From IMG/VR virus record IMGVR_UViG_3300046314_000711: a stretch of 64,000 nt of DNA; one strand, written 5' to 3'. A program made the translations under genes and the position numbers. Each line of letters starts with the position of its first letter. The first letter of the stretch is position 1. Of this stretch, positions 4,186 to 47,838 are shown in pieces. Below the pieces are notes generated by a model. That model was not told the DNA's origin. It searched no databases and was given only the letters and a program-made list of their open reading frames with translations. Source of the DNA: a virus.

Positions 4186-5733
4186 ATGAATTTTGATCAC
4201 AGTTTAGAAAAAATCACACCCGATTTTACAAATATCCTTACAATCGGTGGTCAAGCGTTGGAGCTGCCATTTGGCAATACTAGTGCTCGCCCTGCGGGGG
4301 TCGTCTCTGGTGCGTTGCGCTATAACACAACATTGGGTCAATTGGAGTTTTTTGGTGCTACAACTTGGGAACCCATTGTATCGTCAGTGGCTGGCAATGT
4401 TAATGCAACAGCAACAAACGTAACTGGTACTATTGCGATTACCAATGGTGGTACTGGTCAAACTACTGTTGGTGCTGCGCTTACAGCATTGCTACCACCC
4501 CAATCATCTGCAAGTGGTCAGTATTTAACTTCCAACGGATCGACAGCTTCATGGGCTAGCTTACCAAGTTTTGCTGACTCCATTTCTATTGTTAGTGCAA
4601 ATGGTGTTTCAGGTTCGATTGCAACGATATCTTCAACCGCCGCCATTACACTGACACTTGGCAACATCACACCAACCTCAGTCGCTGCAACAGGGCAAAT
4701 AACAGGCGCTAACTTATCTGGTATTAACACTGGCGACGAGACTTCTACTACAATCAAATCCAAGTTGGGTGTTACCACATTAACCGGCAACAATACTGGA
4801 GACCAAACAATCACATTATCAGGTGACGTTGCGGGTTCTGGTACTGGGTTGCTTGATGTTGTGCTTGCGAATACGGGAGTAGTCCCAGGTACCTATACAA
4901 AAATAATCGTCGATGCAAAAGGTCGAGTAACAGCAGGTGCATCACTATCATCTAGTGACATCACGTCTGCATTGGGGTTCACTCCAAGCAATGCAGCAAC
5001 ATCTGATGCAAGAACATCATTCGATTATACACCTCAGCAAATAACACTGTCGGGAGACGTTACTGGTTCAGGTACAACAGCGATATTGGGTACTCTAGTC
5101 TCGATAGGTACAGCTGGCACCTATGTTAATGTGACGACTGATGAAAAAGGTCGTGTGATAGCCGGAGCATCGACTCAACATTGGAACACAATTACATCTA
5201 CACCAACCACTGTAGCTGGATATGGAATCACAAATGCAGTTACAAATTTAACTTCTACAACCGCTGCCGTCGCTACCGGCGTTGGCGCTGCAACGGCGGT
5301 ATATGGTGCGATCGTTCGTGCAAGTGGAAATTTTTCAGTAGTCGGGGACGCACAGACGGGTGTATACGTTCTTCGCAATTATACAACAACATCTGCACCG
5401 ACAGAACTGTTCACAGACGGCTCATCTGCCCAAATTATACTACCAACAAATAGCGCATATACTTATTTTATGCAAGTGGTTGGCCGTCGCGTCGACTCTA
5501 TCGGAAGCATTGGTAGTTGGGAAATTCGTGGCGCAATCAGTCGTGATGCTACAGCAGCATCTACTTCTTTTGCGGGTGGTGGTAGCAAAACTACACTCAG
5601 TCGTCCGACAAACTGGGATGTTGAGGTATTTGCTGACATTAACAGTGGTGCATTGACTGTCAAAGTAACAGGTGCTACTGGACAAACAATTCGTTGGGTA
5701 GCAACTGTTATCACAACCGAGGTGATTGGTTAA
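4186..5733 (+). CDS. Virion fibre protein, paralog of upstream gene
   Basis: Repeats ITLSGDVxGSGT and GTYxxVxxDxKGRVxAG; C-terminal ~120 aa similar to the 1..4053 product (VLRNxT..TELFxDG..SGALxVxVTG..WVAT..VIG). Confidence 0.75.
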   Translation: MNFDHSLEKITPDFTNILTIGGQALELPFGNTSARPAGVVSGALRYNTTLGQLEFFGATTWEPIVSSVAGNVNATATNVTGTIAITNGGTGQTTVGAALTALLPPQSSASGQYLTSNGSTASWASLPSFADSISIVSANGVSGSIATISSTAAITLTLGNITPTSVAATGQITGANLSGINTGDETSTTIKSKLGVTTLTGNNTGDQTITLSGDVAGSGTGLLDVVLANTGVVPGTYTKIIVDAKGRVTAGASLSSSDITSALGFTPSNAATSDARTSFDYTPQQITLSGDVTGSGTTAILGTLVSIGTAGTYVNVTTDEKGRVIAGASTQHWNTITSTPTTVAGYGITNAVTNLTSTTAAVATGVGAATAVYGAIVRASGNFSVVGDAQTGVYVLRNYTTTSAPTELFTDGSSAQIILPTNSAYTYFMQVVGRRVDSIGSIGSWEIRGAISRDATAASTSFAGGGSKTTLSRPTNWDVEVFADINSGALTVKVTGATGQTIRWVATVITTEVIG

Positions 5734-13712: not shown

Positions 13713-14288
13713 ATGGGACGGTTCGTCAACTATCTAATCGAATCTGCCAATGTACTTAGCGAGTTGGCACTGCCACAAAACAAGTGGGAGACGTTGTTAT
13801 CGACATCTGATAAGCAAGAGGTTGGCAATGACCTAATCGATTTAGTCCGCAATGCATATTACAATACACCTGAGGGTAGTTTCGTGAATAGCCTAAAAGA
13901 CGTTATACCATCTGATTGGGAAGTGATTGATTGGGACGGCGATGCAAGCATCAATGCCACTGTATTCTTTCGTAAGCCTCGTAGTAATGAAAACTGGCAA
14001 GGATGTAAAATACAAGGTCTGGGTCACGACGGTCAGCGACATTCCAAAGATCGCGCTACTGAGAAGATGGTTACCATGCTTGGTACCGTTGGATACTGGC
14101 TCGAGGGTAGTGATGCAATGCGAGCAGTGTTGATGAAAATGCAAGTACCTGTCGTATCAAACGAGCAGTTTTTACGGCAGTTGTTCAACGACCCAGCACT
14201 AAAAATGATAGATCACAGCACGTACCAACGCAGCTTAGGTAATAAGATTATTACCGAATCTGTGTTTGGTAAGCCCGTACTGCGTTAA
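13713..14288 (+). CDS. Hypothetical protein (possible internal head protein)
   Basis: 191 aa ORF; N-terminus MGRFVNYLIE resembles capsid-targeting leaders. Confidence 0.6.
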   Translation: MGRFVNYLIESANVLSELALPQNKWETLLSTSDKQEVGNDLIDLVRNAYYNTPEGSFVNSLKDVIPSDWEVIDWDGDASINATVFFRKPRSNENWQGCKIQGLGHDGQRHSKDRATEKMVTMLGTVGYWLEGSDAMRAVLMKMQVPVVSNEQFLRQLFNDPALKMIDHSTYQRSLGNKIITESVFGKPVLR

Positions 14289-15466
14289 AATATCATCGGC
14301 ATTTCATCGTAGTCGTCGGTATCGTCAAACTCGTGTTTACTCTCTTCCGATTCTTCGACGGAGTACAACATATCAAACGCTGTTTCGTCATATGCAGCTA
14401 ACTGTTTGACGACACGGCACGTTAGTATAGTAGCCATCACACAGTCGTCTGTTGCACCTTCTTTTGCTTTGTATGTACCACCTGTTAATATAAAGTTCTT
14501 GATTTCGTGTACCAAATCACGGCTGTTGAGTTTTAGTACTCCACCTTCAACAAACTCTTTGAAAATCTTGCACCCAAGCGCTTTCGACTTATTGCTTGTA
14601 TTCAGTCCAATCTGACCGACCTCTGATACGAGCTCAACATTTTCTGGTAGAGCCTCATCGTTCGCAAATAGCGCTAACAAGCCTTCACCAACGCCGTTAT
14701 TCTCAACTGTAAAATATACCTGCCAACCAGCCTTATCAGCCTTCTCCCATATCCGTTTCAGGGCGATGTAAATATCACCAGTCTTCGACTTGTTTGACCG
14801 CAGCTCCATCATCTGCTCCAACCCTGGGTATGAAAACACTTGGACTACGGTAAAATCTCGTTCTACACCCTTGCTTGGATCAACAGTTACAATACACTGC
14901 CTATCGTACACTTTAGTCTCAACAGCCTCCTGCCGACTTGGGTTGTGCCACTGATTGTGTAAATTGTAGTTATTGACTTGTTGGGATGTTGATTGTTGAT
15001 ATTTTATCTGCTCCTGCTTTTCAAAATCCCGCCAGATCTTAACACCAAGCTCTTGTGATTTGTGTTCGTGTGTTTTTAGTTGAGCAGCCTTCATACTATC
15101 GATTAGCAGTGGATCGCTTGATAGCATTTCACAATTGTGGGATACGACCCCACTTGATACATACGCGTGAGATGTTGTGTGTATAATATCATATACACGC
15201 TCTGGAATGTTTTGTTTAATTGACACGACTTGCTTGTTGCGTGGAATGCCATCGAGAATCATATTTGGTTTTATGCGTTTCGCGACTATCTCCTTGCGTT
15301 TAACAAAACACCGATGGTCTGTTGTAACTGTTAAAGTGGTTGCATCTGTAAATGTTAGTACAACTGTTGGTTTTACTCCATTAAAAGAAATGCCTCCAAA
15401 GGGCTCAAACCCATTTGGTGTTAGTATTTTGTAGCTGAGCCTGTTATTGTGTAGAATTGGGGTCAT
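14285..15466 (-). CDS. Terminase large subunit part 3: split-intein C-fragment plus nuclease domain
   Basis: IntC ends GVVSHN|CEML; nuclease motifs TVDPSKG, VENNGVG, DDCVMA; SD AGGTGG before ATG 15466. Confidence 0.9.
   Translation of the reverse strand: MTPILHNNRLSYKILTPNGFEPFGGISFNGVKPTVVLTFTDATTLTVTTDHRCFVKRKEIVAKRIKPNMILDGIPRNKQVVSIKQNIPERVYDIIHTTSHAYVSSGVVSHNCEMLSSDPLLIDSMKAAQLKTHEHKSQELGVKIWRDFEKQEQIKYQQSTSQQVNNYNLHNQWHNPSRQEAVETKVYDRQCIVTVDPSKGVERDFTVVQVFSYPGLEQMMELRSNKSKTGDIYIALKRIWEKADKAGWQVYFTVENNGVGEGLLALFANDEALPENVELVSEVGQIGLNTSNKSKALGCKIFKEFVEGGVLKLNSRDLVHEIKNFILTGGTYKAKEGATDDCVMATILTCRVVKQLAAYDETAFDMLYSVEESEESKHEFDDTDDYDEMPMIF
15134..15466 (-). mobile_element. Split intein 3, C-fragment (111 aa)
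   Basis: KILTPNGF, block B TTDH, block F VYD, block G SHN followed by Cys+1. Confidence 0.9.
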
Positions 15467-16361
15467 ATTTTCCACCTTTTGATATATTATCTCTCCAAGG
15501 TAACATCTGCAGATTGTTTACAGCAGCGATTTCCTCAGGTGGAATATCATTACAAAAGCCATAAATCACAGGCATTATATGATCCAAATGATATCCGTCT
15601 CCAGATGTTGCCCTTGTGTAGTTATTTGGATTAATTGTGTGCTTGTTGGAGCGGTAGTTGCGCTCGGTGAGAGTTCGAGCTGTATAACTATATTGCTTCC
15701 ATTCCGACAATAACTCAAATGGTACCACTTTACCTAACGCTTCTAGTTTTTTTCGTCGCTTCTGCCAAGTCTCAGATGTGGTAAAATCATTCATCCATCT
15801 GCCACCAAACGCCTTCGTTAGATTATCTAAGAACTGCCGCCGCTGTTCATCAGTCCAGTTTTGTTTTGTATTGCTTATTTTTTCAGAGTTGTTGTATTTT
15901 TTATCACCGTACAACGCCTGACAAGTCAACTCTCGCTTTATTACTGACTTTTTGTATGAACCTCGTGCTGTACCAGTGGCTATTCTCTGTTGTTGGTGAA
16001 GATATTTTATTGCCTTTGGTGTATTCAGCTTTGCTTGTTTTATACTAGCAATGTGTTGGGTTTTTTGTTCGATGCTGCGTGACCTCAGCGCATCTCTTCG
16101 AGCGATTATTGTGCATTCGTCTGAACCACAGCAAGTCAAAAACTCCATTCTACTTCGACTAAACGAGTTTCTTGCACCACATGAGCAAAATGTAACTAAT
16201 TCTGGATGCATCTTGTGTATAAGATCCGCATATGATGCAACATCGTTCGTAACAAGATGTCTTAAAAAATCACCATTCTTTCTGCAATATATTTCACCAT
16301 CTATAGGGGATTTAATAAACACTCCAAGGTATGGATACCCTTCACTATATTCTATTGCCAT
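15444..16361 (-). CDS. Free-standing HNH homing endonuclease
   Basis: YHLDHIMP..NNLQMLPWRDNISKG; Cys clusters; lies between TerL parts 2 and 3; TATAAATA at 16385-16392 upstream. Confidence 0.85.
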   Translation of the reverse strand: MAIEYSEGYPYLGVFIKSPIDGEIYCRKNGDFLRHLVTNDVASYADLIHKMHPELVTFCSCGARNSFSRSRMEFLTCCGSDECTIIARRDALRSRSIEQKTQHIASIKQAKLNTPKAIKYLHQQQRIATGTARGSYKKSVIKRELTCQALYGDKKYNNSEKISNTKQNWTDEQRRQFLDNLTKAFGGRWMNDFTTSETWQKRRKKLEALGKVVPFELLSEWKQYSYTARTLTERNYRSNKHTINPNNYTRATSGDGYHLDHIMPVIYGFCNDIPPEEIAAVNNLQMLPWRDNISKGGKYDPNSTQ

Positions 16362-16387
16362 GAAAAATAACACTTGTTGCCACTTAT

Positions 16388-17944
16388 TTATACCGAACTC
16401 TCAGTAAGTATGTTAAACAGAGTTTCCAGTGATATAGTATGTATTTTACCACTCTCATCCTGTACTGTTACTGTTTCGTCACTTTCGCAGCAAGCGAATT
16501 CTTGCCGCCATTTTAATTCCCCATTCTTTGCGATTTCTTGCTTCTTGAACGCTTCGGTACGACCCGGTACTTTATTCCATTTAATTGTTAGTGGCTTCAT
16601 TCCATTAATACCTGCTACAGCACCTCGCCATAGTGTTGCAAATAAATCACTATCACCATTTGGTGTAGAGGTCATAAACAGTTTACCGCCAGTTGCTAGT
16701 GTAGGAGAAATTGATGCCCAGAATTCAGTCTGAATCATCGGCCGCACGAAAGCTGTTTCGTCGCAGTTTTTTGTAATAATGTTCCCATTAACTAAAAATG
16801 AGTGATCGCCATTTTTTACCTCCACTAAATCGTACACCGCTGCTGTATCAATCGGTTGTACATCAGTTACAATCAGTTGAGTTGTGGTAGTGTCGATGCA
16901 TTCCCATGCACGTAAATCTCTTGTTTGCTTGCGTTCACCACTTGTGAAAAAAGCGTGTTCAGCAGTAGCATCTACGTGGGTACCATCGGAAAGTGATATT
17001 CGAAATAATTGTTTATCGAGAGTTTTAAGTATACCACTAAAGCCGACCCAACCGTGGGGAGTCAAAACTTGATGTGTTGTATTTGCATTAAATCCCTCAC
17101 TAGCATTAATCCCAGTTGCGTGATACAAGTCGTGTAAAGAAATTGTCAATGCATCACCCACATCGCTTTCACGAACTGTTACCGTTGTATCTCCACCAAG
17201 GCAATACAAAATTGAGAATGATCCGCCTCGACCAGTTGTTTCGGATGTTGCATCAGAAATAATGCGACTACCTGTTTCAAACTTCAATGAAAGCTTATTC
17301 CAACCATCGTCTGTTACTCCAGGTTTTAAAAAGTCAGGAAGACTCTCGTACATGTATTTGATACGTGATATCATCTCACTTGAATTTTTGTGTTTATTAC
17401 TTGTTATTAGTACAGTTTTATCTTTGTTGAAGATACTGAACCAAAACAAATACGCACAACTCGTCTCGCTGTTGTGTGATAAAATATCATTAGTATAATA
17501 CACGTGGTTTTCATCAGCTAATTCCAAATCGTACATTGACTCAGGAGGGCAGTCTATTTTTGTAACACTGATTACAGTTGCAATTCCGTTAATTGTTACA
17601 AGTTCGTCACCTAGCGCCAAATCTTTGGTAAACACTTCAGCTCCAGTACAATCAATCAAAAGGTGCTCGTCGGCACAATATATTTCGGAACCATTATTTA
17701 ACTTAACACACCATACGTCGTACGGCACAGTTTTAAAGATGTGCTTAACGGGAGCAAATCCGGAAGGGGTGTTTACGAACAAATCGTCTGGTGCACCCCT
17801 CTCGACAAATTTGAGGACGTTGTTGTTATATATTGAACACAGAGCAGACTCGGTTTCGGAGAATAGTTCACCTATCGAAATATCAGATGCATTTAAGCAC
17901 CAATTGCGGAATGAAGATTTTAATTGTTTAAAAAGTGTAAACAT
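16388..17944 (-). CDS. Terminase large subunit part 2: IntC1 - ATPase - cis intein 2 - ATPase - IntN3
   Basis: Exteins SETSCAY..TGRGGSFSILY and CDETAFV..TSTPNG..WRQEFA; start taken at ATG 17944 (track start 17989). Confidence 0.9.
   Translation of the reverse strand: MFTLFKQLKSSFRNWCLNASDISIGELFSETESALCSIYNNNVLKFVERGAPDDLFVNTPSGFAPVKHIFKTVPYDVWCVKLNNGSEIYCADEHLLIDCTGAEVFTKDLALGDELVTINGIATVISVTKIDCPPESMYDLELADENHVYYTNDILSHNSETSCAYLFWFSIFNKDKTVLITSNKHKNSSEMISRIKYMYESLPDFLKPGVTDDGWNKLSLKFETGSRIISDATSETTGRGGSFSILYCLGGDTTVTVRESDVGDALTISLHDLYHATGINASEGFNANTTHQVLTPHGWVGFSGILKTLDKQLFRISLSDGTHVDATAEHAFFTSGERKQTRDLRAWECIDTTTTQLIVTDVQPIDTAAVYDLVEVKNGDHSFLVNGNIITKNCDETAFVRPMIQTEFWASISPTLATGGKLFMTSTPNGDSDLFATLWRGAVAGINGMKPLTIKWNKVPGRTEAFKKQEIAKNGELKWRQEFACCESDETVTVQDESGKIHTISLETLFNILTESSV
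16391..16492 (-). mobile_element. Split intein 3, N-fragment (34 aa)
   Basis: WRQEFA|CCESDETVTV..TISLETLF then stop; block A aligns with CLGGDTTVTV of intein 2. Confidence 0.85.
16766..17203 (-). mobile_element. Contiguous mini-intein 2 (146 aa) in Walker B
   Basis: ILY|CLGGDTTV ... TAEH ... VYDL ... NGNIITKN|CDE; no endonuclease domain. Confidence 0.9.
17471..17944 (-). mobile_element. Split intein 1, C-fragment (about 158 aa)
   Basis: VNTPSGF, CADEH (block B), MYDL (F), TNDILSHN|S (G). Confidence 0.9.
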
Positions 17945-18930
17945 TGTTCCAATACTTGTTGAGGGGATTTTCTGAAGTCGTTTTCCCAAACGATATGTAC
18001 TTTGTAACCTGCATCTGTGTAACCGTCTGCACGCTGTTTATCATTCTCCCATAGATGTGCTGCTGTTAATGGAGGGTTACTTTGTCTAATAACATCACCC
18101 GCATTGTATTTTTTCGGATTAGCGTGAAAGTAATCTCCAAAAAACTCAATGATTTTTTTGCTGGTTGTATCAACGTAATCAGGTCTGAAAACCTTATGTG
18201 CTACCTTACCTTGTCGAACTACTTTCACAGTAATTGCCATTTCGCTATTGTGATATGCTGATCGCACACTATCCGACTTAGGTAACTGTGCAATCAAATC
18301 ATTTGATATGTTAGACACACCTGTCTTCGCTCCGCTTTTTGTGAATGATTCGGACCACTTTTTTTGTCTAGCACACCACCGTGCATAGCCGTCTTCCTCA
18401 CCGTACTTTTCAATGCACTTTTTTAAAGAGAACGTTCGTTGACGATCTGATTGTAGTTCGGTAGCTTGTTCAACATCACCATTAGTTCGTTGTAACCAGT
18501 AAGCGAGAGTTGTACTGGAGGGAATTTCGATCCGCTTTGCTGTTGCGTATGCTTTAACTTTTGCAATTCGCTCAGCAACTTCTTGCTCAGATAATCCTCG
18601 ATATTTGATGAATTTAGGTGAGTGAGCAGAGTATTTGCCACCGTGTCCTTTAGATGGGTTTCGAGTAAGCGCACGAGTGGTTAACTGATCGAGATAGTTC
18701 TTACACATTAGAGCAGTTTTATCGCAATTAAACTTTTCGTAGTATTGATCAGTTGTTAACACGTGAGCTGATTTTACGTGCTTGGATAATTGAGAAGCCT
18801 TCAATCCACAGCATTTGCAAGTTACAAATTCAACTCCTTCAACTGCGTTCTGATATTTTTGATTGTTTGTCAACATTTTATGATGTTGGTTACTACGTGT
18901 TTGTCTTTCTTTACTATTCGAGGAATACAT
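17920..18930 (-). CDS. Free-standing homing endonuclease, Vsr/PD-(D/E)XK-like with Zn finger
   Basis: CKCC..H..H finger; RPDYVD..IIEFFGDYFHANP..WEND..GYKVHIVWEND. Confidence 0.85.
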   Translation of the reverse strand: MYSSNSKERQTRSNQHHKMLTNNQKYQNAVEGVEFVTCKCCGLKASQLSKHVKSAHVLTTDQYYEKFNCDKTALMCKNYLDQLTTRALTRNPSKGHGGKYSAHSPKFIKYRGLSEQEVAERIAKVKAYATAKRIEIPSSTTLAYWLQRTNGDVEQATELQSDRQRTFSLKKCIEKYGEEDGYARWCARQKKWSESFTKSGAKTGVSNISNDLIAQLPKSDSVRSAYHNSEMAITVKVVRQGKVAHKVFRPDYVDTTSKKIIEFFGDYFHANPKKYNAGDVIRQSNPPLTAAHLWENDKQRADGYTDAGYKVHIVWENDFRKSPQQVLEQCLHFLNN

Positions 18931-19276
18931 CTGTAAAATCCTTTGGAAAAAATAACCACAGCAATACTTGTTTAAATCTATTTATGGATTTTTTCTGAAC
19001 CCTCGTTAATCTGGTATTTGCTCTGGTGCATTTTCCAGATTGGCGTGGAAATAATGTAATTACGTCTTTATGGTTGTGATATGCGTCGATTAGCTCAACT
19101 TGATAATCGTATAGATTGAACAGCGTTCGTCCTTTAACAGGATGTCGAACGTAGACGTAATTTTGAATGAAGTGAATTGGATCCTTAGCACATTTTGTGA
19201 ACTCCCTCACCTGATCTGGTGTCATTTCAACACTAGTTGAGTTGCCCTTTTTTACATTGACGTTTTTCGTTGCCAT
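18914..19276 (-). CDS. Terminase large subunit part 1 plus split-intein N-fragment
   Basis: KCAKDPIHFIQNYV, LYDYQ, Walker A PRQSGK then Cys (CTRANTRL) and stop 38 aa later. Confidence 0.9.
   Translation of the reverse strand: MATKNVNVKKGNSTSVEMTPDQVREFTKCAKDPIHFIQNYVYVRHPVKGRTLFNLYDYQVELIDAYHNHKDVITLFPRQSGKCTRANTRLTRVQKKSINRFKQVLLWLFFPKDFTDVFLE
18917..19030 (-). mobile_element. Split intein 1, N-fragment (38 aa)
   Basis: Cys directly after GK; CTRANTRLT fits block A (CxxxxTxh). Confidence 0.8.
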
Positions 19277-19314
19277 TTGCTCGTACGCTGGAAGTAGCCA
19301 CTATTTACGCCAAT

Positions 19315-19341
19315 AAAAAGGGGGCTAAAAAGCCCCCTTTT
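19315..19341 (-). terminator. Terminator after tail tube gene
   Basis: AAAAAGGGGGCT-AAAA-AGCCCCCTTTT symmetric hairpin. Confidence 0.8.
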
Positions 19342-19368
19342 GTAATTCACCTAGATGTTGTGTGTCGA

Positions 19369-19959
19369 TTAACCGCCAACGCCCTGGCCACCAAGTGCCA
19401 TGTTATTCTTGACAGCGTTCGGGAAGCGTTGGAACATATGATCAACAGAAATTGTCAAATCGATTGTCAGTGCATCGGAGTTGGAGTAATCGAGTTCAGA
19501 CCCTTTGTAGTCCTTGATCATGCAACCTTCGTACGTCCACGTCTCCAGTACCAAGTCGTTGCCGTTTAGTAAGTCGAGAATGGTTGCAAACTTGTACATG
19601 CTACCTTCTTGGCTTGCTGCCAAGAATGGACCATCTGCTCCAACCACGTACTGTTGGCGTTGTAGCTGAGCTTGGATCACTTTACCAGCCGAGCTGCCAA
19701 TATCATCGTCAAATGTGATGCTAAGATCACCAATCTTGTGCTTACCTAATACTTTCGATACAGAGTTGTAACGGTGCATTTCGTGTGTTTGAAATTCTAA
19801 ATTTGGTCTAGTTAGCTTTTTTGCTTGCATAGATAATGGTGTTGTATTTTGCAATTCTCCGAACTGCAAAAATGTCACTCTCCATTTGTTTTGCTGTTTA
19901 GGTTGTAGAAAACCTGTTCCAACGTCTGGAAGTCCGCCAACTTGTGATAGTGTGCTCAT
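19369..19959 (-). CDS. Tail tube protein, gp19-like
   Basis: LQPKQQNKWRVTF, RPNL, ITFDDD, WTYEGC, LDYS. Confidence 0.85.
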   Translation of the reverse strand: MSTLSQVGGLPDVGTGFLQPKQQNKWRVTFLQFGELQNTTPLSMQAKKLTRPNLEFQTHEMHRYNSVSKVLGKHKIGDLSITFDDDIGSSAGKVIQAQLQRQQYVVGADGPFLAASQEGSMYKFATILDLLNGNDLVLETWTYEGCMIKDYKGSELDYSNSDALTIDLTISVDHMFQRFPNAVKNNMALGGQGVGG

Positions 19960-43509: not shown

Positions 43510-45417
43510 ATGTACATATCTGCAAGCAAACAGTTCGATAAAGTTATTGTGTGGGAGCAACGTACCAATCGCGGTGATCTCAACATCAAAACCTACAATG
43601 CACCTAATGAGTGCTACGTCCGTGTGCTCGATTGGAAATTATGCCGCACCAAATTAAAAGAAGCTGTAGATAGTGGTGATATGGATGAGATAACTGTTCT
43701 CAAGCAGTTTCTCGGCGCAGGTGCTCCTGCAATTGACACGACAGAAACATACCTGTCAATGTACAATGAGCCGCTATACAAGCTCAAATTCTCAAAATCA
43801 AAAGAGTTCCGTAACTTTACTGGCAGTGTCCCACTATTCGTCCGTCTGTATGAGAGTGATATTCCTGCAGAATTGAAAGTCCTATCCAATAATTACTACC
43901 AAGCAGAACTTCCGGTCCTAAATGTTACATTCTACGATATTGAGGTTGAGGCTATCACTCGCTCTCGCAATCCAGACCAGTTAATATCTGTCCGCAGTTT
44001 GTACGATGGTGCAATTACCGATATGCCACTGCGTCTCCTGCGAAAAATCGATTCCCAAGACCACCATGAGTACGAGTACAAGGAGAAACCAACTCAACCA
44101 TTTCGTCCACTGACTAATTCGCCACTGTTGTACGATGAGTTTGACCATTATAGTTCGACGAATGAAGCAGAAGCTCCAATCAACTCTATTGCATTTTATC
44201 ACGCGTGGGAAGATCGTTATGTCTGTTACTGCGTCCCGCCAAAGACCTGGCAGTTTGAAGATTGTGAAAAGAACTTCAACTGGTCTCTATTTGAAGACGT
44301 TCATAGTGAGTACAAAATCGTATTCTGCCGTAATGAAGCTGAACTACTCGCGTACTCCGTCGAGGAGATTCAAAATACTGACGTACTATCAGGTTATAAC
44401 TCGTCTATGTTTGATGACCCATACTTTGCACAACGTGTTCAAATCGTGCTGGGTGAAGAGTGGTTCCAGATGCTGTCGTTTCCAAAAGGTAAGAAGCCGT
44501 ATTACACTGAGCGTGAAATATTCTTCCGTATGCAAAAGCAGGTTCAGTTCGATGGTCGTATCACAATTGACTACTTGGAACTGTTTAAAAAGTTCACCGT
44601 TGAAGATCGTGATAGTTGGAACCTAGAGTCTGTTGCGCAAGACCACCTCGGGGACAAGTTCAAAAAGCTGGACTACGAAGGTACTCTGCATAGTTTGTAT
44701 CACGAGAACTTTTGTAAGTTCATTCGTTACAATTGCAGAGATACGGAGATTTTGTGCGAGCTCGATAAAAAGTACAAGTTTATTGAACTTGGTAATTGGA
44801 TGATGCACTACAGTACTTGCCAAATGAAGCATGTCATGGGTACCGTACGAAAAGCGGAGATGGCTGTAGCTAACTTTTGTTGGCACGAATTGAATGTACG
44901 AGTTCCGGATACTGTGGTACTAGACGAGCAAGGACAAGCTCAGGGAGCGTACGTATTAGTTCCACAAAAAGGTATACATAAAGACCTATTTCTGATTGAC
45001 GTAACAGGATTGTATCCATCTTGCATGAAGGCGATAAACATTTCGCCGGAAAAATACATTGGGCAGTTTATTAATGATAATCGAGATCGGGTAGAGATCA
45101 TTGCTAATACAGATAGTTATTTAACAATCACACTCGCCTCAGGTGAAAAAATTACTAAAATGGCAAAAGATTGGAACACTTGGCTAAGGATGCATAAATA
45201 TGCTATATCCGGATACGGTACGGTCTACAACCAAGATGCACCTGGAATTGTTCCAACTATTTTGGAAACGTGGTTTACACAGCGCAAATCTGCACAAGCT
45301 CGTTCAAAAATTGCGAAGAAGGAACTTGAGGAATTACTAAATGCAGCAAAATTACGAAAAAATAAAACAACAAAGACAACTGTCGGCACACAACAGAGCT
45401 ACAAGAACGCTAGCTGA
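43510..45417 (+). CDS. Family B DNA polymerase, N-terminal part (gp43A-like)
   Basis: ExoI FYDIE, ExoII GYNS..FD, ExoIII YN..D, motif A DVTGLYPS, NISPE; ends after first fingers helix (WFTQRK). Confidence 0.93.
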   Translation: MYISASKQFDKVIVWEQRTNRGDLNIKTYNAPNECYVRVLDWKLCRTKLKEAVDSGDMDEITVLKQFLGAGAPAIDTTETYLSMYNEPLYKLKFSKSKEFRNFTGSVPLFVRLYESDIPAELKVLSNNYYQAELPVLNVTFYDIEVEAITRSRNPDQLISVRSLYDGAITDMPLRLLRKIDSQDHHEYEYKEKPTQPFRPLTNSPLLYDEFDHYSSTNEAEAPINSIAFYHAWEDRYVCYCVPPKTWQFEDCEKNFNWSLFEDVHSEYKIVFCRNEAELLAYSVEEIQNTDVLSGYNSSMFDDPYFAQRVQIVLGEEWFQMLSFPKGKKPYYTEREIFFRMQKQVQFDGRITIDYLELFKKFTVEDRDSWNLESVAQDHLGDKFKKLDYEGTLHSLYHENFCKFIRYNCRDTEILCELDKKYKFIELGNWMMHYSTCQMKHVMGTVRKAEMAVANFCWHELNVRVPDTVVLDEQGQAQGAYVLVPQKGIHKDLFLIDVTGLYPSCMKAINISPEKYIGQFINDNRDRVEIIANTDSYLTITLASGEKITKMAKDWNTWLRMHKYAISGYGTVYNQDAPGIVPTILETWFTQRKSAQARSKIAKKELEELLNAAKLRKNKTTKTTVGTQQSYKNAS

Positions 45418-46669
45418 CTATATTGAATTAATAAGAACTAATCAGCGAGTTAACACTACAACGTTGCGAGAAGATATAAGAAATCAAATCGATGTGTTAG
45501 TATCGCCTGTATTTGCTACATATCCGTATCGTGAAAAATTACTTGCGATTGTTGAAAACCGTACTACGCTACCAACTTGTAAAACTTGTGGGAAAATAAC
45601 TACATTTACCAAAGCAGGTTCAGCCAGTGGGCAGATCAATAGGTTTAATGAGTTTTGCAACACTGCTTGTCGCAATAAATATTGTCCCACTGAAGTAGTG
45701 CTATCGGTAAATGAAATTAGGGAAGAAATAAAAGATTGGTCTCCACAACAACTCCGCACTTTACCACTTCGCAATCCACAGTTGTATGGGGCGCTTGTAG
45801 CTGCGACTAATTGTTGTGTGCCAACTAACAAAAGCAATGATAAACTTGGGGTGACGATACTGCAGCGCGTATGGCACGTTATGCACCCTGATGTAGAGCT
45901 GCCATCGTGCGTGGAGTGTGGTAAACCAACAAAGTGGGATCCAAGAACTACACAATACTGTACATACTGTGGTCCAAGTTGCTCCAGTTCGTCGTGGATA
46001 CAAAGTGAGAAAAAATCAAAAACTATGACAAAAGCAATGCGAGATTGTCTGTCTAATAAAGATTGGTTTTACGATCAGCACATCACACAACAAAAATCGT
46101 TCCAACAAATGCGCGCAGAGAATAATATTGCAGTTGCGTATACAATGTCATATTGGGCAAAAAAACACGGTATACAGAACCAACGATATGCGTTGAGTTC
46201 ACAGCAGCGAATATTGGTAGAGTGGTTAGAGCAGCAAGGAGTAGAAGTGCTTGTTAATAATAGGCAAGTAATTAAACCGCGGGAGTTGGACATAGTTCTA
46301 CCCACATATAACATTGCAATTGAGTATGGTAGTTACTACTTTCACAGTGTAGGAGATTTACCACATTTAAGACGAATGACACCTACCTACCATTTAAATA
46401 AGTGGAAAAGTTGTGCAAATAACGGATTCACATTGTTGACACTATTTGACGCAACAGATACACTTGATCAGTGTAAAAAGCAAATTATGATTGCTATTAA
46501 TAAAGAAAATGTTGATACGAACAAGGGGAATTTGCGATACTACCATAGTTCACACTCAACTGTTGCGAAAATACTTCCGCCTAAAATAATACAAACGCGA
46601 GATATTGCTGTAGTGGGTAGAGATGATAGGGTTGTGTTAGAATTATACGATTGTGGGACAGCAATATGA
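45341..46669 (+). CDS. Free-standing homing endonuclease (Vsr/Hef-like) between polymerase halves
   Basis: Two Zn-finger repeats; RELDIVLP.YNIAIEY..YFHS..YHLNK; own SD GAGGA. Confidence 0.85.
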   Translation: MQQNYEKIKQQRQLSAHNRATRTLADYIELIRTNQRVNTTTLREDIRNQIDVLVSPVFATYPYREKLLAIVENRTTLPTCKTCGKITTFTKAGSASGQINRFNEFCNTACRNKYCPTEVVLSVNEIREEIKDWSPQQLRTLPLRNPQLYGALVAATNCCVPTNKSNDKLGVTILQRVWHVMHPDVELPSCVECGKPTKWDPRTTQYCTYCGPSCSSSSWIQSEKKSKTMTKAMRDCLSNKDWFYDQHITQQKSFQQMRAENNIAVAYTMSYWAKKHGIQNQRYALSSQQRILVEWLEQQGVEVLVNNRQVIKPRELDIVLPTYNIAIEYGSYYFHSVGDLPHLRRMTPTYHLNKWKSCANNGFTLLTLFDATDTLDQCKKQIMIAINKENVDTNKGNLRYYHSSHSTVAKILPPKIIQTRDIAVVGRDDRVVLELYDCGTAI

Positions 46670-47838
46670 CGCATATAGTGAAGGGAGTGGAGTTGACAGA
46701 TGTTGAATATGACAGATATACTGCACTTACAGCAGAGATTGATTATTGTGAATCACAATCATATGCATTTAAAATTTTGCAAAACTCGTTTTACGGAGCT
46801 CAATTAAACCAAAATTTTAAATTCTATGCAAAGGTTGCTGGAGAGAGTACAACTGGTACGGGGAGACACGTATTGCAACATCAAATTCGCAAGTGTTGTG
46901 AAGTATTGGATGGTGACTATAACATTGACCCAATTGTCGATGATGAAGATCCGCGAGCTATCCGCGGGGAAGCGGCAAGCCCATCAATTATTTATGGAGA
47001 TACGGATAGTTCCATACTTACGTTAAAGCATGTTTTAACTGGACGTGAGACGTTGCAAGAAAAAATAAAAATTGCAGACAACATAGCACTGCTTGTTAAT
47101 AAAAGTTTTCCGAAATTTATGATGGAGCAATTTCTGCTACAGCCTGAGTTCTCGGATAAGATCAAAACTGGTAGAGAGTTGTTTGCGTCTGCTGCATTCT
47201 TCGTATCGAAAAAACGATACGCAATGCACGTAGTTGATAAGGAGGGAATTCCCAAAGATGATTTGAAGTTAATGGGTCTTGATGCAAAGAAGACTACTAC
47301 CCCTCGTCCAATCAAAGCTTTTTTAAAGAAGTGTGTAATGGATGTACTCAAAGGTGTACCAGCCAAAGAGCTTGATGAATACATTGTAGCATACCGCGAT
47401 AAGATCATTGATGATGTGCCACTAATGGAGATCGGTCTTCCAAAGGGGATTAAGAAGATTGAATTATACACTGAAGAATTTCGCAATAACCCACGCACCC
47501 GCATTCCTGGACATACTTCAGCAGCATTGCTGTACAATGAGTTTAGAGAACGCTACAAGGATAATCAATCGTTGCAAATCAGCAGTGGTATGAAGATTAA
47601 AGTGTTCAATTTTAAGTATGAGTTTGAGCACGACGGACGAATGTTCAAGTCAATTGCACTCCCAACTGATACGGAAGAGATTCCACAATGGTTTGCTGAT
47701 GACTTTGTACCACTAATTGATCGTATCACCCACTCGAAGAAACTTGTAGATAATATGCTGCACAATATGTTTGATTCGATCCCACGGCACGTACCAACTA
47801 GGCACATGCAAGCGATTGAAGAAGAATTTGAATTTTAA
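46666..47838 (+). CDS. Family B DNA polymerase, C-terminal part (gp43B-like)
   Basis: Motif B KILQNSFYG, motif C IYGDTDS, KKRY; ATG overlaps the endonuclease TGA (ATGA). Confidence 0.93.
   Translation: MTHIVKGVELTDVEYDRYTALTAEIDYCESQSYAFKILQNSFYGAQLNQNFKFYAKVAGESTTGTGRHVLQHQIRKCCEVLDGDYNIDPIVDDEDPRAIRGEAASPSIIYGDTDSSILTLKHVLTGRETLQEKIKIADNIALLVNKSFPKFMMEQFLLQPEFSDKIKTGRELFASAAFFVSKKRYAMHVVDKEGIPKDDLKLMGLDAKKTTTPRPIKAFLKKCVMDVLKGVPAKELDEYIVAYRDKIIDDVPLMEIGLPKGIKKIELYTEEFRNNPRTRIPGHTSAALLYNEFRERYKDNQSLQISSGMKIKVFNFKYEFEHDGRMFKSIALPTDTEEIPQWFADDFVPLIDRITHSKKLVDNMLHNMFDSIPRHVPTRHMQAIEEEFEF

Follow-up and report, generated by a model that had tools for sequence, protein, structure and literature searches.

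A phage large terminase gene broken into three pieces by two putative split inteins, with a contiguous intein in its middle piece

Organization of the terminase locus

The gene for the large terminase subunit (TerL) described here lies in IMG/VR virus record IMGVR_UViG_3300046314_000711, of which a stretch of 64,000 nucleotides (hereafter the window) was analysed. Between positions 14285 and 19276 the minus strand carries five tightly packed open reading frames (ORFs) that code, in this order, for TerL piece 1, a first endonuclease, TerL piece 2, a second endonuclease and TerL piece 3. All three terminase pieces are in one reading frame, the two intervening ORFs occupy the other two frames of the same strand, and none of the terminase pieces contains an internal stop or a frameshift. 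All features of the locus given below are on the minus strand.

Piece 1 (18914-19276, 120 aa) ends its terminase part with ..LFPRQSGK, followed by a Cys, 37 further residues and a stop codon. Piece 2 (16388-17989) opens with intein sequence ending in ..ILSHN and continues with a terminase segment of 89 aa (SETS.. to ..SILY), an intein of 146 aa (C.. to ITKN), a second terminase segment of 91 aa (CDET.. to ..WRQEFA) and, starting with CCESDETVTV.., 34 intein residues before the stop. Piece 3 (14285-15475) begins with intein sequence ending in ..VVSHN, after which CEML.. opens the last 282 aa of the terminase. At both breaks, an N-terminal intein fragment (IntN) follows the host N part in frame and a C-terminal intein fragment (IntC) precedes the host C part in frame. 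The ORF of piece 2 is open from 17989, its likely start being ATG 17944 (the choice of independent gene calls, giving 518 aa), and the likely start of piece 3 is ATG 15466, with AAGGTGG upstream; with these starts, IntC1 is 158 aa and IntC3 is 111 aa long.

In silico removal of the three inteins leaves 82 + 89 + 91 + 282 = 544 aa. The resulting product aligns without gaps at all three junctions with the intact TerLs of XacN1 and Xoo-sp13. Over residues 1-544 it also shares 81-82% identity with four TerLs of 545-548 aa that are encoded without interruption by syntenic IMG/VR contigs having the same neighbouring genes (L004-L007). A tblastn search of the 64-kb window with the TerL of an intact relative returned exactly four blocks, corresponding to the four exteins (E 1e-42 to 1e-142), an agreement that chance could not produce. 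A preliminary description, made from the sequence alone, had located the three pieces and their junctions and had proposed that excision of the inteins restores a terminase of 544 aa; every element was found where it had been placed, and the colinear, gap-free alignment with intact homologues bears the proposal out.

Extein 1 (19031-19276) comprises TerL residues 1-82 up to Walker A, ..PRQSGK, and is 82% identical to residues 1-82 of the intact L005 TerL (phrog_5989, terminase large subunit, E 2.6e-17). Extein 2a (17204-17470) extends from SETS.. to Walker B and is 90% identical to the same intact protein; extein 2b (16493-16765) runs from CDETAF.. to ..WRQEFA. Extein 3 (14285-15133, including the stop) is the RNaseH-like nuclease domain of TerL (Pfam Terminase_6C E 2.1e-7), with 33% identity to XacN1 TerL and 74% to that of L005. 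Pieces 1 and 2 match terminase PHROGs, piece 3 being the one matched by Terminase_6C. The window also encodes a gp20-type portal, an S77 prohead protease and a gp23 capsid protein; it belongs to an uncultured T4-like myovirus, whose nearest cultured relatives by terminase are jumbo phages at about 33% identity.

The same DNA arrangement recurs in contigs of several independent samples, which argues against an assembly artefact. A nucleotide search of a phage collection with the whole locus gave no match, and promoter and terminator counts in a scan of 14000-19700 were at or below the shuffled expectation and carry no information.

Identity of the inteins and positions of the splits

The three inteins align with one another, and each keeps Cys1, the block B His, block F, the terminal Asn and a Ser or Cys at position +1 (Ser in intein 1, Cys in inteins 2 and 3). 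Their motifs are C1, CADEH, ..DENHVYY.., SHN and S+1 in intein 1, where the block B Thr is missing; C1, TAEH, ..GDHSF.., TKN and C+1 in intein 2, with Lys as penultimate residue; and C1, TTDH, ..SHAYV.., SHN and C+1 in intein 3. Piece 2 is matched by intein models of both Pfam and NCBIfam. IntC1 (17471-17944), with blocks N2, B (CADEH), F and G (ILSHN) before Ser+1, is recognized by Pfam Intein_splicing and matches gp41-1 (E 4.6e-7), CatC (E 6.5e-4) and VidaL (E 2.4e-3) in the PDB.

Intein 1 interrupts Walker A at GK|S (site a). Its split position was read from an alignment of the site-a inteins of the window, of the sister phage L009 (a Logan contig with the same three-piece layout), and of L017, P0005, P0006 and L008. 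The contiguous mini-inteins at this site (156-159 aa) have motif N2 directly behind block A; the inteins of the window and of L009 are interrupted after residue ~16, where piece 1 stops, the endonuclease gene is located and piece 2 starts. By this alignment intein 1 is broken just after block A, which is the S1 position. When a contiguous site-a allele was modelled with AlphaFold2 (AF2), its HINT core was predicted with confidence, and VidaL was the structure that matched the model best.

The preliminary description had recognized an IntN1 of 38 residues. About 16 of these, CTRANTRLTRVQKKSI (18983-19030), are intein-homologous, representing block A and the first two strands and aligning with block A of P0005, P0006, L009 and L008. 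The other 22 form, with the stop codon, an insert-derived tail (18914-18982) that has no counterpart in the contiguous mini-inteins and shares nucleotides with the start and the ribosome-binding site of endonuclease gene 1. At the head of IntC1, piece 2 likewise begins with ~20 insert-derived residues. An IntN1 even shorter than block A was considered and dropped, since DISIGELFSE in piece 2 is motif N2 and the break falls after residue ~16. The tail has a hydrophobic pattern in common with L009, and its counterpart in the fused form of L017 is modelled as a helix by AF2 at low confidence. The piece 1 tail and the piece 2 head might together make up for the brevity of IntN1 by forming a helical clamp.

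Intein 2 (16766-17203), located at ILY|CDE in Walker B (site b), is a contiguous mini-intein of 146 aa (CLGGDTTV .. TAEH .. IITKN; NCBIfam intein_Nterm E 9e-6) followed by the Cys+1 of CDE. Intein 3, at QEFx|C (site c), consists of IntN3 (16388-16492, 34 aa CCESDETVTVQDESGKIHTISLETLFNILTESSV and a stop) and IntC3 (15134-15466), which contains blocks B (TTDH), F and G (VVSHN) and precedes Cys+1. It is broken after 34 residues, following the first helix, at the S2 position; with intein 1 at S1, natural atypical splits of both types thus occur in a single protein. Among PDB sequences, IntC3 is matched best by CatC (6dsl_B, E 1.5e-3), the consensus of the AceL and GOS TerL inteins, whose chain continues ..SHA-CES, with Cys-Glu after the junction as at site c. 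A link to AceL/GOS-TerL, proposed in the preliminary description, is indirectly sustained by this match. A word-based homologue search with the IntC3 region found only the window's own protein, and a scan of viral contigs with IntC3 found nothing.

Endonuclease genes at the two breaks

Both breaks are occupied by a free-standing endonuclease gene out of frame with the terminase, as the preliminary description had it. Endonuclease gene 1 (17920-18930, 336 aa) has AAAGGA upstream of its ATG, and its ORF overlaps the 3' end of piece 1 by 17 nt. It matches phrog_22677 (E 5e-18) and codes for a Ros/MucR-type zinc finger (Pfam ROS_MUCR E 3.1e-7) followed by a putative Vsr-like nuclease domain. Statistically, the Vsr-like assignment is suggestive: the C-terminal domain has weak Pfam matches to DUF559 (E 0.03) and MTES_1575 (E 0.023), and the family profile matches the Vsr endonuclease weakly (E 0.45) with the D..GxxxH..IVWE motifs aligned. 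D251, E262, H269 and E316 are invariant in the family. On its own, endonuclease 1 yielded nothing but a marginal Ros match in a PDB sequence search.

Endonuclease gene 2 (15444-16373, third frame) codes for 309 aa, or 305 from ATG 16361, and is a candidate HNH or endonuclease VII-like gene. It matches phrog_5104 (E 9e-16) and phrog_1035 'endonuclease VII' (E 1.8e-5), and a C-terminal HLDH..N..N motif recognized by eye is HNH-like; there was no Pfam, NCBIfam or PDB match. NCBIfam gave nothing useful for either endonuclease.

Endonuclease gene 1 has a short similar stretch (cagaaaa..tcc..caagtattg) on either side, in the piece 1 tail (18957-18997) and at the gene's own 3' end (17950-17975). This possible direct repeat was rejected as evidence, since by chance alone 5 kb should contain a repeated 9-mer. 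The resemblance is probably fortuitous; it could be a scar of endonuclease-gene turnover.

Selection on exteins and inteins

Comparison with L009, the reference for the ratio of nonsynonymous to synonymous substitution rates (dN/dS), indicates that the terminase gene is functional and not decayed. The exteins are 95-100% identical at the protein level, with dN/dS of 0.00-0.03 at a synonymous divergence (dS) of 0.7-1.2: extein 2a is 100% identical (dS 1.2), extein 2b 98% identical (dN/dS 0.013), and the dN/dS of extein 3 is 0.027. The inteins are far more diverged, at 34-59% identity (59% for intein 2 and 50% for IntC3). With dN/dS of 0.19 and 0.17, respectively, IntC1 and intein 2 nevertheless remain constrained.

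Empty, contiguous, split and re-fused alleles in relatives

The same three sites were compared in related contigs. Site a is empty in L003-L007 and holds a contiguous mini-intein in P0005 (L015, L016) and in P0006. A split accompanied by a Vsr-like endonuclease gene occurs here in the window, in L009 and in the distant L008, the L008 break being at S2 instead. In L017 (2050-3303) the intein is re-fused relative to L009 (2567-4199): an internal deletion of about 1 kb has removed the endonuclease gene except for an 11-codon remnant, and the two frames now read through as a single intein, its halves connected by a linker of 58 residues. In the flanks, identity to L009 is 96-97%, and the AF2 model of the linker contains two helices at low confidence (pLDDT ~51-57).

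Site b is empty in L004-L007 and contiguous in the window, L009 and P0005. In L003 and L017 an intein of the same allele family as intein 2 is split there by a Vsr-like endonuclease gene. The L003 copy of this gene (L003:6424-7340) is in two adjacent ORFs (147 and 156 aa) and may be decaying; its L017 homologue is a single ORF.

Site c is empty in L003-L007 and split with the HNH-like gene in the window. The split also occurs there without any endonuclease gene: in L009 (5255-5258) the stop of IntN and the start of IntC overlap by 4 nt (ATGA), and in L015 and L016 (6820-6830), which come from two samples and differ in their DNA, stop and start overlap by 11 nt. In these cases, representing two lineages and three samples, the halves are in different frames. 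Unless trans-splicing works, it is difficult to see why a split should persist once its endonuclease gene is gone.

Occurrence of similar middle pieces

Piece 2 was compared exhaustively, by HMMER, with 1.84 billion cluster representatives; besides the window's own fragment, 149 matched, and their extein blocks were mapped on an intact TerL. Middle pieces of the same kind, starting with an IntC that ends ..SHN|S/T and ending with QE(F/Y)x|C and 28-52 further residues, make up 25 of the 149 (representatives of 50%-identity clusters, 33-57% identical to piece 2), and 12 of these 25 also have a contiguous intein near Walker B. Such counts are not frequencies, since the query favours IntC-first proteins. 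The preliminary description had considered two trans-splicing pairs in one terminase to be unusual; the layout is real, but it is recurrent among the nearest representative clusters.

One of these middle pieces, P0062, was examined in its context in L020 (4191-8618), a 59.9-kb Logan contig of a distant phage. Within the Walker A codons of its terminase gene lies a group I intron (RF00028, 64.1 bits, 4417-4756). A 38-aa ORF carries GK and an IntN, and the middle piece comes 40 nt after it, so that the site-a split is without an endonuclease gene. The middle piece contains a contiguous intein, a GIY-YIG gene occupies the site-c split, and piece 3 follows, making five interruptions or pieces.

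Proposed assembly of the terminase

Since the five ORFs follow each other closely on one strand, with stops and starts that overlap, they are probably co-transcribed. From the arrangement of the coding sequences we infer the following course of events. Piece 1 would consist of extein 1, the ~16 residues of its very short N-intein and the 22-residue tail, piece 2 of IntC1, extein 2a, contiguous intein 2, extein 2b and IntN3, and piece 3 of IntC3 and extein 3. IntN1 would dock into IntC1, and trans-splicing of GK to SETS would rebuild Walker A; intein 2 would splice ILY to CDE in cis, rebuilding Walker B; IntN3 would dock into IntC3, and trans-splicing of QEFA to CEML would join the ATPase domain to the nuclease domain. 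Each split would have originated when a free-standing homing-endonuclease gene was inserted into a mini-intein, a Vsr-like gene at S1 of intein 1 and an HNH-like gene at S2 of intein 3. We put the probability that three TerL polypeptides are converted by two trans-splicing reactions into a 544-residue TerL at roughly 80%. The reading of the locus as two split inteins with free-standing endonuclease genes and one contiguous intein, put forward in the preliminary description, has held in the sequence tests.

Piece 2 has the layout IntC-extein-IntN that engineers use for cyclisation, which means that crossing between the two pairs must be avoided. The net charges in the window are +5 for IntN1 and -13 for IntC1, -6 for IntN3 and +7 for IntC3, and the polarity is the same in L009 and L015. 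Cognate halves of opposite charge would attract each other, and crossed halves of like charge, including the two ends of piece 2, would repel. This polarity, the one indication obtained at the sequence level, suggests, as a hypothesis, that pairs 1 and 3 are orthogonal. Both charge polarities have been noted among different split inteins by Dassa et al. 2009 (PMC2677866).

A complex prediction for piece 1 (residues 62-120) and piece 2 (residues 16-200) lends weak support to the docking of the first pair: the median ipSAE is 0.36, the best control scores 0.00, the runs share at least 73% of their contacts and the pLDDT of the partners is 54 or more. Of 78 solved complexes, 51 come up to the mark used, as do 2 of 108 mismatched pairs, and scores of 0.60 or lower include only 5 of the 78 solved complexes but all 4 mismatches that passed. 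Split-intein complexes have already been solved, so the pass may reflect likeness only.

Several observations weigh against the proposed assembly. Block B of intein 1 is CADEH instead of TxxH, and intein 2 ends in KN instead of HN; both are non-canonical, though conserved in the family. IntN1 is short, has a dN/dS of ~0.5 relative to L009 and bears a 22-residue tail that is not intein, which makes its splicing competence the weakest link; of the two trans-splicing reactions, that of intein 1 (S1 type) is the weaker. Like-signed ends are found in 14 of the 25 middle pieces and several IntN are near neutral, the polarity being only a trend in the wider family. Finally, the tblastn search that detected no second terminase gene covered the 64-kb window of a contig of ~156 kb.

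A more far-reaching proposal is that the locus holds a natural, co-evolved and mutually orthogonal pair of split inteins, one S1 (~16 residues) and one S2 (34 residues), that assembles three polypeptides in vivo, that opposite polarity blocks crossing and cyclising, and that the system is widespread, in at least 25 divergent clusters. We regard it as plausible, with the evidence tilting slightly in its favour.

Alternative explanations

The pieces might instead assemble non-covalently, one or both split inteins serving as association domains only, as proposed for NrdA of Aeromonas phage Aeh1, which is split by an endonuclease gene. Sequences derived from mobile elements that hold fragmented phage enzymes together are documented (PMC3045599); the DNA polymerase in the same window is split by a 442-aa ORF without an intein (see below), and an IntN1 of only ~16 weakly constrained residues would suit such a role. 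However, the catalytic positions are all kept in both split inteins and in the L009, L015 and L008 alleles, and the intein parts are under purifying selection. The site-a break is inside the P-loop (GK|S), where a retained HINT domain of ~150 residues would occupy the ATP site, and without splicing of the contiguous alleles at the same sites the host terminase could not work. Non-covalent assembly is consequently improbable, though it is the best of the alternatives.

That the locus is a pseudogene in decay, its phage genome being defective or a dead end and crowded with selfish elements, is far less probable. Three inteins and two endonuclease genes are admittedly a heavy load for one essential gene, and the locus is represented by metagenomic contigs only. 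The extein dN/dS values at dS ~1 relative to L009 speak against decay, as do the intact reading frames of the pieces, the recovery of the same sequence from several samples and the clean junction motifs kept in 25 divergent clusters.

Least probable of all is that a single polypeptide arises because the endonuclease stretches are removed as group I introns or skipped by translational recoding: T4-like phages commonly have such introns with endonuclease genes, and L020 has a real one in its terminase Walker A region, but no Rfam match (RF00028 included) was obtained at E up to 1 in 14000-19600, a meaningful negative since the same search finds the L020 intron, and every break has intein block A before it and blocks B, F and G after it, the overlapping site-c halves of L009, L015 and L016 (4-11 nt) leave no space for an intron, and the L017 site-a insert is translated in frame within the intein.

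Relation to known split inteins

The fractured loci of Dassa, London, Stoddard, Schueler-Furman and Pietrokovski (2009; PMC2677866) are each described as broken in two, with a Vsr-like endonuclease family, which the suggestive assignment of endonuclease 1 would fit, in half of the loci; the set given there includes one gp17-like terminase locus, whose atypical break leaves only motif N1 in the N part. As in these loci, a phage enzyme gene is broken by a split intein and a free-standing endonuclease gene on the same strand lies between the halves. In contrast to them, one gene is here fractured twice, at two intein positions and with two unrelated endonuclease genes, and carries a third, contiguous intein. 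The three-piece fractured terminase extends a known kind of selfish element.

Intein 3 resembles the S2-type inteins AceL-TerL, GOS-TerL and Cat (PDB 6DSL). Its IntN of 34 aa falls within their range of 25-37 aa (25 aa in AceL-TerL, 37 aa in GOS-TerL), as does its IntC of 111 aa within 104-115 aa, and it shares with them Cys1, Cys+1 and the terminase host, and with the CatC chain Cys-Glu after the junction, although the sequence relation is distant (CatC, E 1.5e-3). Intein 1 is similar to the S1-type inteins VidaL, with an IntN of 16 aa, and PolB16 OarG, of 15 + 168 aa (PDB 6VGV, 8CPN): about 16 intein residues are in the N part, against 15-16, and the IntC is 158 aa, against 168 aa. Here too the sequence relation is distant (E 2e-3 to 0.5). 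Unlike VidaL and PolB16, intein 1 has an insert-derived tail of 22 residues on its N-fragment and a head of ~20 residues on its C-fragment, and its site is the terminase Walker A.

A close parallel to the overall design is engineered tandem trans-splicing, in which three polypeptides are joined by two orthogonal split inteins (PMC12707363, PMC7090010). There, as here, the middle piece is IntC-extein-IntN and orthogonality is needed against mis-joining and self-cyclisation. The engineered systems are man-made combinations of inteins from different sources, whereas the present pair is apparently natural and co-resident in one gene. A literature search, which had most subscription papers outside its scope, brought up no natural gene described as having two split inteins, nor any account of the three-piece form.

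Tandem trans-splicing is a method for building or labelling proteins from three segments. If the proposed assembly is true, evolution has already solved the problems of orthogonality and self-cyclisation, and the locus would offer ready-made pairs with N fragments short enough (~16 and 34 residues) to be accessible by peptide synthesis. In addition, the series of empty alleles, contiguous alleles, alleles contiguous after loss of the endonuclease gene and alleles split with or without such a gene allows a cycle under long debate, in which endonuclease genes invade and inteins break and re-fuse, to be tested directly within one gene family. The locus also illustrates the selfish load bearable by an essential phage gene, with three inteins and two endonuclease genes in 5 kb where the bare gene takes 1.6 kb.

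Other fractured genes

On the plus strand of the window (43510-47838), a family B DNA polymerase is encoded by two ORFs, at 43510-45417 (Pfam DNA_pol_B_exo1/DNA_pol_B) and 46651-47838 (DNA_pol_B). Between them is an ORF of 442 aa (45341-46669) that has neither a Pfam match nor intein motifs; the polymerase gene is the second one fractured in this phage, apparently without an intein.

P0007 (664 aa, from an ENA contig of 2796 nt) has an IntC of the same intein family (..NDILSHN|TT) fused to an SMC_N-type ATPase and not to a terminase, which suggests that this intein family also targets the P-loops of other ATPases and is split there too.

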